The position numbers and the translations under genes are program-made. A DNA stretch of 64,000 bases, from IMG/VR virus record IMGVR_UViG_3300045919_000302, positions 64,001 through 128,000 of that record; one strand, 5' to 3'. Origin of the DNA: a virus. The notes below the pieces were generated by a model that was not told the origin of the DNA, ran no database searches, and was given only the letters and a program-made list of their open reading frames with translations. Shown here piece after piece: positions 40,240-43,941 of this stretch; the stretch's first letter is position 1; each line of letters opens with the position of its first letter.

Positions 40240-40814
40240 TTTCCACCTCTGATGATTTCGATGATTTGCGATTCGTGAACCGGTGCGAAGTCCCAGACAT
40301 CCACTCCGACGTTAATCCACTTATCTTTTGTCTTCCACTTCTCGTGGACGTGGCCGTGCAGAATCCAGCCTTCATCCTGAGGTCTAAACTCCTTGTATCT
40401 GACGTCGTAACCCTCAACTTCCACGAACGGCGGCATGTGATGCAAGAGGATAGGAACTCCGTCGATCTCGATCCGGGCTTCGAGCTGCACGGTCTTGAAC
40501 ACGGACAGATACAACTCCATCGCTTGGGCCATCTTGTTGGGCTTCGTTCGACAAGGATGGACCCAGTCGTGGTTGCCGGCGACCAGATGGATCTCGCCAT
40601 TCAGTCGCGGTCCAACCTCTGTGACCCAGTTCTTCCCGAGCGAGAAGTCGCCCAAGTACCAGACGAAGTCGCCTGGCTTCACCCGAGTGTTCCAGCGGTC
40701 AACCAGAATCGCATTCATCTCCTCTTTATCCAGAAATGGGCGATTGCAATACTTGATGACATTTTCGTGACCGAAAAGCTAATGATGGTCAGACGTGTAA
40801 AATCTGTTAACCAT
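40236..40814 (-). pseudogene. calcineurin-like metallophosphoesterase with in-frame TAG at codon 12
   Basis: MVNRFYTSDHH*LFGHENVIKYCNRPF...LGDFS...GNHD...HGHVH...NVGVD; ATG 40814 coupled to the upstream stop. Confidence 0.8.
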
Positions 40815-43800
40815 CGAGCACCTCGCCTTCTACATGTCCGACATGCTTTTTGAGTTGGTCGTTGGTTTTCTCGGTTCCCCAGTCCTTCTGGAGATCATCA
40901 AGGCCGATGCCCTTCTCCATCCACGCCTGCTCTTCGGCGGTGAGCTTCTTGCCTTCAAGCACCTTACGGGCCAACTCAGCCTTCTTTTTAAGGATCCCGA
41001 TGACTTTGGAGTCCCAACGATTGCCAGCAGCCTTGATCCAGTAGACGTTCACCATGTTCTTCTGACCGATACGGTGTGCTCGTGCAGTGGCCTGGGCTTC
41101 ATCGGCAGTATTCCACGGCAGGTCGTTGAAGATCACCTTGTCCGCCCGGGTCAGGGTTGCTCCGACCGCGAGGGATTGACGGGTGGTGCAGAACACCCGC
41201 TTGTCGGTTCCTTCGCGCTGGAACTCGGCCTTGGCCGCTTCGCGGACTTCGTCAGAAAGCTGGCCGTGATGGAGCAGGGAAAGGTCGCCCATGGCTTCGT
41301 GGATCTGTTTGGCAACTTCGACCGAGTCCGAGAATACGAGCATGCTTGAGTCGGAGGATTCGAGCATCTCCTTGATGAACTCGATCGTCGCTCCGGCCTT
41401 GTCGATGGCGATGTCGCTCTTCATCCGGGCGATGTCTTCGAAGTCGATCTTGCCGTCTTCCGGGATGTCGCGGCAGCCTTCGACTTCGAGTTCGATGATC
41501 GAAGTGAGCTTCTCCGGGAGATCCTTCAGGACTTGGGCCTTGGAGGCGGTCTTGTAGAACTCCTGGATCTTGTGCCAGGTGCCGCCGATGGTCGCCATCT
41601 TGAGCGCGGTCTTGGACTCGAAGAAGCCGGGGCGGATCAGCTCCACCTGGGTGAAGAGTTCGTCCTTCTTGTTCTTGATCGCGGTGCCCGAGAGGAGGAT
41701 CTTGTGGGCGAAGAGTGAGGAGACCGAGTGGACGGATTTGGTGATCTTGGCCTTCGGGTTCTTGATCGAGTGACTATTGTGAACCAGTGCTCCGTTTACA
41801 GAGAACGAAGGGTGGCCAGACACTTTGAGATCGTAGTAAAAACCCTGCTCGTTTCCTGGGTAACCTCCAGATTCGTGAACCGTAACACCGTCCACCCTAA
41901 TTCCTTTAACTTCAGATCTTTTTTCTTGTCCTGCTCTCTCCGAGACAAGTGCGACAAGCCGTCCACTTCTACGCACAGCCGGTCCGAGACCAGCGCAAGA
42001 TCCACTTTGTAGTTCGTTGGATATCCCGGAAATCTCCCACCCAAAGACACCGCGTGATTCCATTTCCACGAACGACCGAGGCGTGACAACAACAATCTCT
42101 CCGGTTTCGTCGGCCCGTGGCCGTTCCCGCCCCGAACTGTTGGCTTCCATCCTATTCGTTTCAGAGTCGCCGAGACTTTGGATCGCGTGGCTGCTGAATG
42201 CATGGGATTCTTCAGTCTCATGCGAATAGCCGAATCCGGCCTCGCCTTCCCGGTTAGCGAGTTGCTTATTTTTAAAGCTGTCTTCTTCGTGTAAACCTTT
42301 GCTCGAATAGCAGGTTGCCTCATTCTCCATTTCGCAGAGCAGGAGGTTCCGCAAAAACGCTGCTTTCTGTACTGGTTTGGCAGGAAACTCTTCGCGCAAT
42401 AACTGCACGGCTTCTTCTTGGCTGACAAGGGTGTCTCCTTCTTTTAGGTTTTCAGCAAACACCCACCCACGACTTGTAAGGAAAGGATGATGCGATGAAC
42501 ATGTGACCGTTTGTCCACCGTATCTTAATTCAGTGCGGCTGTCCAATATCTGCGTCCTCTTGGTTCCGAGAACAGTAGATGTACCGGCAGCCGAATAGAC
42601 CTCATCACCGACTTTTATTTGATCAATCCGCACCGGCCCACTTGGGGTATCAATAAGGGTCTCAGGTCCAAAGCACTCGTCGATCACCATCACGTCGAAA
42701 CCGGCGGCCTGGATCGCGGGGAGGAACTTCTCGAAGCTCGCGAAGTTGACGCTGGCGATTTGAACCTGGGAGAGATCCGGCATCCCGTTCTTCTTGAGCG
42801 ACTTCGGGGTCAGCTCAATGCAGCGGGTGAAGTAGCCCGGGAAGAACTTCTTGGCTTCCTGGATCCAGGTCCGGCGAACCACCTTGGGGCAGACCACCAG
42901 GATCCGCTTGTTGTTCATCGCGGCGTAGCAGAGGGAGATGAGGGTCTTACCGAGGCCCATCTCAGCGCCGATCAGGGCGTTGCCGTTGGCGACATTCAGG
43001 AAGCGGACGAAGTCGTTCTGGAAGGGGAACGGGACGATCTCGGGATTGATCATCGCCATCAGCTCCGGGATCGGGGCTTCGGCGGCGGCCTTCTTCATGT
43101 CGCGCTCGACCTGGGCTTCTTCGATACCCTGGAAGAAAAACTTCCAGCTCGGGAGCAACTCGCGGGCCTTGGTGATCGCTTCGAGGGCGAGATCGAGGTT
43201 GTTGGTCAGACGGGCCCAGTCGGAGACCCGGCACTCGACGATCCCGGAGAGCTGGCTCGTTTTGTTTGAGAAGAGGCCATTCAGAACGGTGGAGAACGAG
43301 AACCGGAACTCGAACATGTCGCCCACCTTGCGGCAGATGAAGGCGTTGTTGATCCGCTTCTGGTCGAGGAGGGAGAGAGCCTTCTCCAGAGTGAGTTCGG
43401 CCTCCGGGGTCTTCTCAAACACCGGCACCGGGTTCACGGTGAAGCCCAGGGCCTCTAACTCGGCCTTGTAGCCGGCGAAGTCGAATGAGTCGATGTTCCT
43501 GCCCGGAACGTAGTTACGATCGAGGCCCCGGTCCCACCAAAGGCCGAACTTCTGGTTGACCCGGATGTACCGACGGCGCACCAGGGTGGGGATCGAGCCT
43601 TCGTGAGACATGAGAAGGGCCGCACCCCAGCGGGCGTCAAGCACCTGGAGGACTGGGGTGATCGTCGGGAGCTTGATCTCAACCTTGACTTCAACCCGGA
43701 AGCTCTGGGGGTAGTTCTGCTCGACCGCTTCGCGGCCTTCTTCGCCGAACTGGCCGAGCTGGGTCTTGAGGTACTTCTTGAGGACGTGGGCCATCTCGGT

Positions 43801-43941
43801 GGCATCGCCCCGGACACCCGGCCAGCTGATCCAGTCAGGTTGATTGAAGCCGACCTCGTTCCGCTCCTTGACTTCGTCGATTCCAAACAGGAAGTCGCCC
43901 ATGTGGCAGAGAAGCTGAGCTTGAATCAAGAATTTTTCCAT
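40807..43941 (-). CDS. SNF2/HARP-like helicase containing an intein
   Basis: AEMGLGKT, VVCP, IDE|SH split by the intein, LSGT, GATLT, QATARAHRIGQ. Confidence 0.93.
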   Translation of the reverse strand: MEKFLIQAQLLCHMGDFLFGIDEVKERNEVGFNQPDWISWPGVRGDATEMAHVLKKYLKTQLGQFGEEGREAVEQNYPQSFRVEVKVEIKLPTITPVLQVLDARWGAALLMSHEGSIPTLVRRRYIRVNQKFGLWWDRGLDRNYVPGRNIDSFDFAGYKAELEALGFTVNPVPVFEKTPEAELTLEKALSLLDQKRINNAFICRKVGDMFEFRFSFSTVLNGLFSNKTSQLSGIVECRVSDWARLTNNLDLALEAITKARELLPSWKFFFQGIEEAQVERDMKKAAAEAPIPELMAMINPEIVPFPFQNDFVRFLNVANGNALIGAEMGLGKTLISLCYAAMNNKRILVVCPKVVRRTWIQEAKKFFPGYFTRCIELTPKSLKKNGMPDLSQVQIASVNFASFEKFLPAIQAAGFDVMVIDECFGPETLIDTPSGPVRIDQIKVGDEVYSAAGTSTVLGTKRTQILDSRTELRYGGQTVTCSSHHPFLTSRGWVFAENLKEGDTLVSQEEAVQLLREEFPAKPVQKAAFLRNLLLCEMENEATCYSSKGLHEEDSFKNKQLANREGEAGFGYSHETEESHAFSSHAIQSLGDSETNRMEANSSGRERPRADETGEIVVVTPRSFVEMESRGVFGWEISGISNELQSGSCAGLGPAVRRSGRLVALVSERAGQEKRSEVKGIRVDGVTVHESGGYPGNEQGFYYDLKVSGHPSFSVNGALVHNSHSIKNPKAKITKSVHSVSSLFAHKILLSGTAIKNKKDELFTQVELIRPGFFESKTALKMATIGGTWHKIQEFYKTASKAQVLKDLPEKLTSIIELEVEGCRDIPEDGKIDFEDIARMKSDIAIDKAGATIEFIKEMLESSDSSMLVFSDSVEVAKQIHEAMGDLSLLHHGQLSDEVREAAKAEFQREGTDKRVFCTTRQSLAVGATLTRADKVIFNDLPWNTADEAQATARAHRIGQKNMVNVYWIKAAGNRWDSKVIGILKKKAELARKVLEGKKLTAEEQAWMEKGIGLDDLQKDWGTEKTNDQLKKHVGHVEGEVLDG
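41776..42675 (-). mobile_element. intein (300 aa) at helicase motif II, with alternate-frame endonuclease
   Basis: Starts CFGPETLIDT, block B CSSHHPFLT, block F YYDLKV, ends LVHN before Ser. Confidence 0.95.
41796..42428 (-). CDS. Vsr/DUF559-type endonuclease overprinted in the +1 frame of the intein
   Basis: CSYC..FCGTSC finger, NUMOD3-like basic repeats, PTKPE, VDLA..LCVEVDGLSH, DKKKD..L..LGWTVLRF; SD AAGGAG-N6-TTG. Confidence 0.9.
   Translation of the reverse strand: MSAKKKPCSYCAKSFLPNQYRKQRFCGTSCSAKWRMRQPAIRAKVYTKKTALKISNSLTGKARPDSAIRMRLKNPMHSAATRSKVSATLKRIGWKPTVRGGNGHGPTKPERLLLSRLGRSWKWNHAVSLGGRFPGYPTNYKVDLALVSDRLCVEVDGLSHLSRREQDKKKDLKLKELGWTVLRFTNLEVTQETSRVFTTISKCLATLRSL

Follow-up and report, generated by a model that had tools for sequence, protein, structure and literature searches.

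The window, by which we mean the whole 64,000-nucleotide stretch of viral DNA analysed, carries on its minus strand (as holds for every feature described below) a SNF2-family helicase precursor gene at 40807..43941, an ORF of 1044 amino acids plus stop that is the host of an intein. The precursor gives Pfam matches to SNF2-rel_dom, Helicase_C and ResIII and is assigned to PHROG 62, DNA helicase (E 7e-67). Comparison with intein-free orthologues defines an N-extein of amino acids 1-422 (42676..43941), which extends up to helicase motif II in ...VMVIDE. The class-1 intein that follows comprises 300 residues (amino acids 423-722; 41776..42675), from Cys1, the N-terminal nucleophile placed straight after VIDE, to His299-Asn300 and then the +1 Ser. 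Its insertion point lies within VIDE|SHSIKN. An earlier note on this DNA had described a 900-bp intein (42675..41776) splitting the DE|SH of the helicase, and both the coordinates and the splicing blocks are confirmed by ORF, Pfam and alignment evidence.

The intein exceeds the Pfam cut-offs for Hint_2 and PT-HINT, and alignment with 58 relatives shows C1, H63 and N300 to be invariant and H299 nearly so. H63 is the block B histidine, which at the locus stands in S-S-H-H, with Ser at position -3 for the usual Thr. The C-terminus reads ...LVHN|S; all related loci have S or C at +1, and the motif PSF/Y..NG.LVHN|[SC] is kept in every one of them. AlphaFold models two confidently folded splicing domains, an N-terminal one of intein residues 1-85 with blocks A and B (42421..42675; pLDDT 91-98) and a C-terminal one of residues 256-300 with blocks F and G, ...YYDLKVSGHPSFSVNGALVHN (41776..41910; pLDDT mostly >90). 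By Foldseek they resemble the gp41-1, MchDnaB and RecA inteins (E 2.7e-7 to 1e-4), the gp41-1 intein being the top structural match. Between them lies a 'passenger' linker in the helicase frame (residues ~130-250; 41926..42288), which is predicted to be disordered (pLDDT 39-52); the helicase-frame middle of the intein has no Pfam match, in agreement with the earlier description of an in-frame centre like no known domain. The helicase frame runs unbroken through the element at the locus and in about 110 relatives, and the stop and restart of a fractured gene are absent. Judged from these sequence features, the intein is a contiguous one of class 1, expected to excise itself in cis from the precursor and leave a restored helicase of 744 residues.

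The endonuclease in the +1 frame

Read in the +1 frame, the same strand contains an endonuclease gene at 41796..42428, recognized from its ORF and its DUF559 match, with a TTG start, a product of 210 amino acids predicted to begin M-S-A-K-K-K-P, and a TAA stop at 41796-41798. The Pfam assignment to DUF559 (E 4e-14; 52.8 bits at a cut-off of 20.6) applies to the +1 frame only and recurs in 62/62 endonuclease relatives. The AlphaFold model of the product is of high confidence (pLDDT 92.9) and places a Vsr/DUF559-fold nuclease domain, delimited with VIA-align, at residues 105-209 (41802..42116). Since the Foldseek matches of the nuclease were weak (E 3e-3 to 1e-2), we re-scored the structural matches with VIA-align, which gave Z 14.1 for the DUF559 protein 3HRL (rmsd 1.3 A over 88 residues), Z 12.6 for the homing endonuclease I-Bth0305I (3R3P; rmsd 2.0 A over 91 residues, 29% identity) and Z 9.8 for Vsr (1CW0). 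A profile search of the PDB found 3HRL at E 9e-12 and 3R3P marginally, at E 0.45. The catalytic motif E154-x-D156-G-x-x-H160...D167 (41928..41969) has the EDxHD signature; D143, D156, H160 and D167 are invariant among the 62 relatives and E154 is nearly so (at least 90%).

Toward the N-terminus, a CxxC...CxxxC zinc-finger module is formed by C8, C11, C26 and C30 (42339..42407), of which the first two are invariant and the last two nearly so in the 62 sequences; the module has weak zf-FCS and eL24-type matches. The region between zinc finger and nuclease is modelled as confidently helical, and weak PHROG matches (E 5e-4) relate the endonuclease to DNA-binding parts of HNH endonucleases. With E limits of 1 for the locus and 0.01 for the 62 members, Pfam gave no NUMOD match, which leaves the two NUMOD3-like repeats of the earlier note unsupported. 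What that note had otherwise read from the letters, namely the cysteine finger and a Vsr/DUF559-type ORF of 210 residues at 42428..41796, has stood up, and the profile and structure searches of both frames that it had called for assigned a family and a fold to the +1 frame only. The +1 product is thus predicted, from sequence profiles and structural models together, to be a DUF559/Vsr-like endonuclease of the EDxHD type.

The gene also appears to be equipped with a start signal of its own. A Shine-Dalgarno element AAGGAG (42435..42440), built from the intein codons K-E-G, precedes the TTG by a 6-nt spacer. Three other SNF2 inteins at the same site (L086-L088) show GGAGG, AAGGAG and TGGAG, each 6 nt before a TTG in the same frame, so that the arrangement is found in 4/4 SNF2-site members; L001-L004 have GAGG-N6-9-ATG at the endonuclease start. 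Several members of the family have no obvious Shine-Dalgarno element, and a TTG start located within a translated ORF may be inefficient. A dedicated endonuclease promoter was not found: the lone sigma-70-like match (42295..42268) sits downstream of the start, and the count of such matches equals the shuffle expectation.

Distribution and selection across the family

The family has hundreds of members in phages and many bacterial phyla, at an endonuclease identity of about 35-50%. A homologous endonuclease lies +1 inside the annotated helicase CDS of four isolated Vibrio and Pseudomonas phages, and the same layout is found in 79/80 IMG/VR loci (the number examined for layout from a total of 241 relatives there), in 31 of the 34 full-length loci among 130 GTDB relatives and in three orthologous SNF2 genes. 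No version with the endonuclease in frame was seen among the phage, IMG/VR, GTDB and orthologue loci examined. Neither a megablast search of phage records with the gene nor a single-sequence endonuclease scan of IMG/VR yielded a near-identical relative; relatives were recovered only by tblastn or with an alignment as query, and the nearest element at the same site has 56% endonuclease identity.

About 110 loci, belonging to different helicase families, have the insertion at DE| of helicase motif II, and of the 64 distinct flanks in the family 88% show D-E at the junction. The presumed homing site at our locus consists of an N-side half GTGATGGTGATCGACGAG encoding V-M-V-I-D-E (42676..42693) and a C-side half AGTCACTCGATCAAGAAC encoding S-H-S-I-K-N (41758..41775), flanks with which the joined, intein-less sequence proposed earlier agrees. 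Intein-free orthologues read through this point uninterrupted as AGFD..IIDESH.IK. Of the close orthologues, seven run through IDE|SH without a break and four have the element, a patchy presence. Similarities of endonuclease, splicing domains and exteins are correlated (Mantel r 0.55-0.69), a pattern in keeping with descent that has been mostly vertical, or with homing confined to helicase subfamilies, and one that gives no hint of an element hopping freely. Relatives of the endonuclease also occur free-standing, outside inteins (L019, with 51% best-segment identity, L108 and L119).

How the two frames are maintained is revealed by their stop codons and substitutions. The helicase frame of the locus has 0 stops compared to 8.7 in synonymous shuffles of the endonuclease gene (P<0.002), and the same is true of 70/70 distinct family members (0 stops, 10.2 expected from synonymous shuffles). 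Stops in the third frame are at the shuffle expectation, and the equivalent frame of the three free-standing relatives contains 13-21 of them. A fourth relative of the endonuclease outside inteins, L120 from Polaromonas, has just two stops in the frame equivalent to that of the host; no intein halves were detected for it, and it may represent a decayed element. Substitutions in the intein linker follow the periodicity of the endonuclease frame (0.28/0.26/0.45), whereas in the non-overlapped N-terminal splicing domain, which lies outside the overlap save for its last three codons, they peak at codon position 3 of the helicase frame. Identity is about 0.6 in the endonuclease frame compared to about 0.4 in the helicase frame. 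Periodicity and higher identity across the family together indicate continuing purifying selection on the nuclease.

A true dual-constraint zone is confined to 41799..41910, where the C-terminal strand and helices of the endonuclease run over intein blocks F and G. In the 22 pairs measured there, mismatches are infrequent at each of the three codon positions (0.13/0.22/0.22), and conservation extends to both frames. Save for one near-identical pair (L073/L077), the pairs available had at most 72% protein identity. Joint selection on both proteins is thus shown for the last ~110 nt; elsewhere, through most of the overlap, all that is kept in the helicase frame is the absence of stops. The earlier proposal of 633 bp under simultaneous selection in two frames consequently holds for the terminal stretch and not for the remainder; its companion expectation, that homologous inteins would keep the endonuclease frame conserved and free of stops, agrees with what we found. 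Apart from stop avoidance, no selection for hydrophilicity or disorder was detected in the helicase-frame linker (hydrophobic fraction 0.253 compared to 0.257 in shuffles), and the excesses of Gln, Ser, Glu, Trp and Phe in the linker look like by-products of stop avoidance.

A probable composite mobile element and the competing explanations

Based on the collective evidence, we consider it highly probable that the locus is a composite mobile element, made up of a contiguous intein and a separate +1 homing endonuclease gene at motif II of a SNF2 helicase. A disordered linker of ~170 residues would join the two splicing domains, and the intein would remove itself to leave the helicase restored. 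The endonuclease would combine an N-terminal zinc finger and a helical DNA-binding region with the C-terminal EDxHD nuclease of Vsr/DUF559 fold, and its translation most probably begins internally on the helicase mRNA, at AAGGAG-N6-TTG. Helicase alleles lacking the intein would be the expected substrate of the enzyme, cut near ...ATCGACGAG|AGTCAC..., upon which recombinational repair would copy intein and endonuclease into the cut allele. Translation start, splicing, cleavage and homing are in this scheme the steps that we infer.

A more far-reaching version, which we offer tentatively and with some doubt, takes the element to be ancient, stable and obligately dual-coding, and such elements to be the norm for helicase motif-II inteins in phages and many bacterial phyla. 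The overlap itself would then be functional: the intein's codons for G-D/E-G-D could provide the ribosome-binding site, translation of the helicase could throttle initiation at the endonuclease, and the two genes could be locked together, neither of them deletable alone, where the C-terminal end of the endonuclease runs over blocks F and G.

Among the alternatives to the composite mobile element, the one to survive best, if still improbable, is that the nuclease is expressed and has a main role other than homing, such as competition between phages by marker exclusion, the breakdown of host DNA or defence, the intein being no more than a safe harbour. DUF559/Vsr-fold nucleases are widespread as chromosomal and free-standing genes, and both the free-standing relatives noted above and the similarities that follow the extein, suggestive of much vertical inheritance, speak for such a role. 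The single insertion point shared by the loci argues instead for homing that is specific for a target site, as does presence or absence exactly at IDE|SH among orthologues; moreover, I-Bth0305I, the closest structural homologue to have been characterised, is a proven homing endonuclease (PMC3239194).

Slightly less probable again is that the endonuclease of this phage is a silent relic, untranslated or inactive, whose ORF is intact merely by recent descent. Homing endonucleases often decay once fixed, and a weak TTG start inside a translated ORF together with the lack of a detected upstream promoter would accord with silence. Against this, the ORF is full-length, none of the invariant catalytic or zinc-finger residues has been lost, the near-consensus Shine-Dalgarno is intact, and the endonuclease-frame periodicity and identity excess of the family point to purifying selection that continues on the nuclease. 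A programmed +1 ribosomal frameshift from the helicase frame, to produce a fusion of N-extein, N-intein and nuclease, could draw on the common strand and mRNA of the two ORFs and on the +1 relation of the nuclease. We regard it as very improbable, given that the +1 frame opens just 5 codons before the TTG at the locus, hence leaving 15 nt for any shift, that divergent members keep a spaced Shine-Dalgarno and start right before the first CxxC, and that free-standing relatives start at the equivalent position. Finally, a nuclease truly in frame and displaced by two compensating indels, a generic possibility for a metagenomic viral contig that the earlier note had raised and for which no support was found, is rejected as next to impossible: the +1 layout recurs in >110 independent assemblies, including the isolated phages CP-T1 and MR14 and Vibrio phages, and is never in frame, the endonuclease gene starts and stops with codons of its own and terminates before the intein does, and the part of it that codes for the C-terminus runs across blocks F and G in a different frame.

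Relation to known inteins and free-standing endonucleases

Textbook inteins have their endonuclease in frame. Overprinting is the rule in the present family, whereas recent papers treat overlapping-ORF inteins as rarities, and the +1 layout persists through deep divergence. Out-of-frame and antisense intein endonucleases as such are already known. They go back to the 'Non-canonical inteins' of Gorbalenya 1998, as cited by later papers for out-of-frame intein endonucleases, and non-canonical inteins with an endonuclease in an overlapping ORF have been described from actinobacteriophages, in a 2025 preprint that terms these architectures rare and reports antisense LAGLIDADG, antisense Vsr-like and same-strand frame-3 endonuclease VII-like cases (bioRxiv 10.1101/2025.01.02.630785). 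A cyanobacterial dnaX intein has a LAGLIDADG endonuclease in the +2 frame, with a Shine-Dalgarno motif and frame-specific selection (bioRxiv 10.64898/2026.09.14.751524). The mention in the earlier note of alternate-frame intein endonucleases in phage surveys agrees with this literature, which includes the Gogarten-lab papers of 2025-26, and since such endonucleases have been published the locus is less novel than first held. With the published examples it shares the contiguous intein, the unstructured in-frame middle and the folded endonuclease in another frame, as well as the proposed origin from a mini-intein invaded by a free-standing endonuclease gene; it differs from them in the same-strand +1 arrangement, the EDxHD/DUF559 nuclease and the location in helicase motif II. 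We found no published description in the literature of a same-strand +1 EDxHD family in helicase inteins.

There exist further analogies to fractured genes, in which a free-standing Vsr-like or GIY-YIG endonuclease gene lies between the halves of a split intein (Dassa et al. 2009, PMC2677866). Common to both are the EDxHD Vsr-like superfamily, hosts in phage DNA metabolism and an endonuclease gene with its own signals inside the intein, and the 3' end of the endonuclease gene extends, here as there, into the sequence that codes for the C-terminal intein, by 6-69 bp in fractured genes (PMC2677866). The gp41-1 split intein of that study is the closest structure to our splicing domain by Foldseek. 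The distinction is that the host frame of fractured genes is stopped before the endonuclease and restarted after it, with splicing in trans, whereas the frame here is open and the intein contiguous. Phage methylases offer a parallel in the ShiLan-type out-of-frame insertions of HNH endonucleases (Arsenault et al. 2025, PMC11855218), in which an endonuclease gene is likewise hidden in another frame and the host ORF is left open by the insertion; these use an HNH nuclease and are without intein splicing domains, in contrast to the canonical splicing blocks present here.

As regards the enzyme itself, phage-borne I-Bth0305I (PMC3239194; 3R3P) has in common with the +1 product a Vsr-fold C-terminus and the E/D/H/D residues, and in both an N-terminal region, putatively DNA-binding in the +1 product, precedes the nuclease domain. 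That region contains NUMOD/HTH motifs in I-Bth0305I, as opposed to the CxxC...CxxxC zinc finger of the present family, and I-Bth0305I resides in a recA group I intron with no protein-coding overlap (PMC3239194), not in an intein with an overlapped frame. By profile search the family is nearer to the DUF559 protein 3HRL than to I-Bth0305I.

Free-standing endonucleases, contiguous overprinted inteins and the split inteins of fractured genes can be seen as a natural series. The overprinted inteins provide a clean model of long dual-coding evolution, with selection at the protein level on one frame and mostly a 'no stop' rule on the other. The pairing of a small splicing domain with a putatively sequence-specific nuclease aimed at a universal helicase motif may be of interest for protein engineering and genome editing. 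The nuclease is annotated in 0/4 GenBank phage records examined, exposing a systematic gap in annotation.

The SNF2 helicase intein and its overprinted nuclease gene

The window (bases 64001-128000) belongs to a 149,291-bp complete virus record with direct terminal repeats, and its SNF2-family helicase (40807..43941, minus strand; 1044 aa; Pfam SNF2-rel_dom, Helicase_C and ResIII; PHROG 62, E 7e-67) is split within motif II, VMVIDE / SHSIKN, by an intein of exactly 300 codons (42675..41776, minus strand). The intein starts with Cys and ends with His-Asn, followed by the extein Ser; Hint_2 and PT-HINT exceed their Pfam gathering cut-offs on it, and Intein_splicing stays below its own. In 58 relatives C1, H63 and N300 never vary, and the intein therefore looks competent for splicing. 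Its AlphaFold model has pLDDT >90 at residues 1-90 and most of 255-300, and 39-52 at residues 130-250; the top structural matches are splicing domains of mini and split inteins, with gp41-1 (6QAZ) first (E 2.7e-7, 31% identity).

One base downstream of the helicase frame, an ORF of 210 aa (42428..41796, minus strand) runs from TTG to TAA (41796-41798) and covers intein codons 83-293, or ~70% of the intein. It stops 20 nt short of the intein end, and the codons for its C-terminus therefore overlap splicing blocks F and G. The proposal of the earlier note that this +1 frame encodes a DUF559/Vsr-type nuclease is borne out: Pfam DUF559 matches the +1 product (E 4e-14; 52.8 bits vs a cut-off of 20.6), whereas the helicase-frame middle of the intein has zero Pfam matches. 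In an AlphaFold model built from an alignment of 62 sequences (mean pLDDT 92.9), the +1 product folds into a zinc-finger hairpin, five helices and a nuclease domain of alpha/beta type. Model residues 105-209 superpose on 3HRL, a DUF559 protein (Z 14.1, rmsd 1.3 A, 88 residues), on 3R3P, the catalytic domain of I-Bth0305I (Z 12.6, 2.0 A, 91 residues, 29% identity), and on Vsr 1CW0 (Z 9.8). The same three structures lead the Foldseek list, with weak E-values. Residues invariant across the 62 sequences include C8, C11, D143, D156, G157, H160, D167, K170, W179, R183, F184 and N186, and E154, C26 and C30 are nearly so; on this conservation of the catalytic residues, the EDxHD set is judged to be intact.

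Recurrence of the layout and published precedents

Searching GenBank phages by tblastn with the +1 product returned 40 records at 31-36% identity. In all four records opened (Vibrio phage 159E43-1b, Pseudomonas phage MR14, Vibrio phage CP-T1 and Vibrio phage 1.194.O), the match lies within the annotated helicase CDS, in its +1 frame, and the helicase frame holds a C...HN intein at DE|CHH. IMG/VR, scanned with an alignment as query, yielded 241 relatives, and 80 of them were fetched for frame analysis. In 79 of these 80 loci, no stop interrupts the frame lying one base upstream of the endonuclease frame anywhere along the endonuclease gene, and this frame belongs to ORFs of 453-1439 aa; the third frame is closed in 80/80, its open stretch at the endonuclease midpoint being just 4-93 aa. 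Intein ends in the long ORFs read '...DE|CF..T' and '...NG.LVHN|[SC]'. The same layout is found in 31/34 full-length relatives from GTDB; the MAGs and genomes concerned carry the labels of many phyla. The earlier note named two compensating frameshift errors, which would place nuclease and splicing blocks in one frame, as a possible refutation; homologous loci share the +1 layout, and in no phage, IMG/VR or GTDB locus examined do the two share a frame.

In the four phage records (L001-L004) the intein and overprinted endonuclease are unannotated, the region being labelled 'DNA helicase', 'putative helicase' or 'coil containing protein'. Many chromosomal DUF559 proteins in GTDB (L123-L169, mostly Alphaproteobacteria) match the C-terminal nuclease domain only (query residues ~100-210) and have no zinc-finger/helical N-terminal half; they are ordinary DUF559 genes outside the intein-borne family.

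Vsr-like endonuclease genes sit free between split-intein halves (Dassa et al. 2009, PMC2677866), and the EDxHD family was named with the characterisation of I-Bth0305I (Taylor et al. 2011, PMC3239194). Later papers cite Gorbalenya 1998 for an antisense LAGLIDADG ORF overlapping an intein. Actinophage inteins carry Vsr-like ORFs in antisense and endonuclease VII-like ORFs on the same strand in frame 3 (bioRxiv 10.1101/2025.01.02.630785), in a report that describes overlapping-ORF inteins as rare and Vsr-like endonucleases as otherwise known with split inteins only. A cyanobacterial dnaX intein has a +2 LAGLIDADG ORF (bioRxiv 10.64898/2026.09.14.751524), and an out-of-frame hidden HNH occurs without an intein (PMC11855218). 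The published overlapping ORFs are thus antisense, frame-3 or +2, whereas that of the window is a same-strand +1 EDxHD endonuclease at helicase motif II, a layout for which our full-text literature search found no description in contiguous inteins. Given the 2025-26 papers and this negative search, we place the locus as a new variant, by the literature searched, within the already known overlapping-ORF inteins.

Selection on the two frames

In synonymous-codon shuffles that preserved the endonuclease protein and codon usage, the helicase frame acquired a mean of 10.2 stops, with a probability of ~3e-4 of remaining open; the natural sequences have 0 stops in 70/70 distinct cases, and the third frame has about as many stops as the shuffles predict (19.2 observed vs 17.9 expected). 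Natural controls agree: in three free-standing relatives outside any intein (L019, L108, L119), 13-21 stops interrupt the equivalent frame. Artefact or chance as the source of the layout is ruled out by this stop avoidance together with the recurrence in phages, IMG/VR and GTDB.

Codon periodicity was evaluated in 22 sequence pairs; in 21 of them the endonucleases are 55-72% identical, and in the remaining pair the proteins are the same. Linker mismatches at endonuclease codon positions 1/2/3 (0.277/0.258/0.449) follow the endonuclease frame, with helicase-frame position 3 the least variable, and the same nucleotides give an amino-acid identity of ~0.6 in the endonuclease frame vs ~0.4 in the helicase frame. 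In the non-overlapped N-terminal splicing domain (0.312/0.252/0.447), variation is highest at helicase-frame position 3. Across the last 45 intein codons (0.133/0.216/0.221) every position is constrained and both translations are conserved. No compositional selection on the helicase-frame linker beyond stop avoidance was found (hydrophobic fraction 0.253 vs 0.257 in shuffles); Gln, Ser, Glu, Trp and Phe are in excess of the shuffles. The codon-position mismatches and shuffle composition therefore qualify the earlier claim of 633 bp simultaneously selected in two frames: it holds for ~110 nt (41799..41910), to which dual constraint at the protein level is limited, and fails for ~500 nt, where one frame is selected as protein and the other only for remaining open. 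With the extent of selection so refined, the original observation of an intein with a +1-frame endonuclease is confirmed and its interpretation supported; our confidence in the architecture and the selection on it is high.

Expression, mobility and relatives

The endonuclease TTG is preceded by AAGGAG (42440..42435, minus strand) at a 6-nt spacer. GGAGG, AAGGAG and TGGAG, each 6 nt 5' of the +1-frame TTG, occur respectively in the three other same-site SNF2 loci (L086-L088), formed by the intein codons for (K/E/L)-G-D or L-E-D and for L-(V/A), where the N-terminal splicing domain ends; a GGAG-type Shine-Dalgarno motif, 6-nt spacing and TTG are thus common to all four same-site members. In the four isolated phages the start is ATG, with GAGG, formed by D-E-V codons, 6-9 nt 5' of it; in some family members a Shine-Dalgarno sequence is not obvious. 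Expression as a frameshift fusion from the helicase frame is argued against by the window's +1 frame, which opens just 5 codons ahead of the TTG. Since no promoter-like site was found upstream of the gene in the window, predicted translation from the helicase mRNA is consistent with the evidence. Internal initiation, like homing, is proposed with moderate confidence.

Among the closest N-extein homologues (43-61% identity), AGFD..IIDESH.IK is uninterrupted in seven (P0004, P0005, P0006, P0010, P0017, P0026, P0027), and this intein lies exactly at IDE|SH in four (window, P0012, P0008, P0018). The sequences at hand include no near-identical pair of which one member has the element and the other lacks it. 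The three same-site relatives are closer to the window in endonuclease (identity 0.56, 0.40, 0.43) than in whole intein (0.44, 0.31, 0.37). Of 64 distinct family junctions, 88% have D-E next to the insertion. Loci that are similar in one of endonuclease, splicing domain and extein tend to be similar in the other two (Mantel r 0.55-0.69, P 0.001); the three therefore travel together, largely inside helicase subfamilies. Unrelated inteins with HNH_3 or LAGLIDADG (Hom_end) domains occupy a second site 5' of motif II (...HN|CGKT or ...HN|T) in the orthologous helicases P0007, P0021, P0022, P0024 and P0034, making these phage SNF2 helicases a hotspot for several intein types.

The free-standing relatives L019 (3351-4154, plus strand; 267 aa, 51% best-segment identity), L108 and L119 have unrelated genes on their flanks; interrupted as they are in the frame that intein-borne copies keep open, they are useful outgroups to root the origin of the overprinted state. 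A further relative on a Polaromonas glacialis scaffold (L120:3375-4049) has just 2 stops in the host-equivalent frame, with no intein halves detected nearby, and is possibly a copy of the element in decay.

Directly past the helicase stop, at 40719..40809 (minus strand), the frame of a metallophosphoesterase gene reads MVNRFYTSDHH*LFGHENVIKYCNRPF..., with an in-frame TAG within its first metal-binding motif; the ORF as called begins again at ATG 40718. The gene could be a pseudogene, it could be split, or the TAG could be subject to readthrough/recoding.
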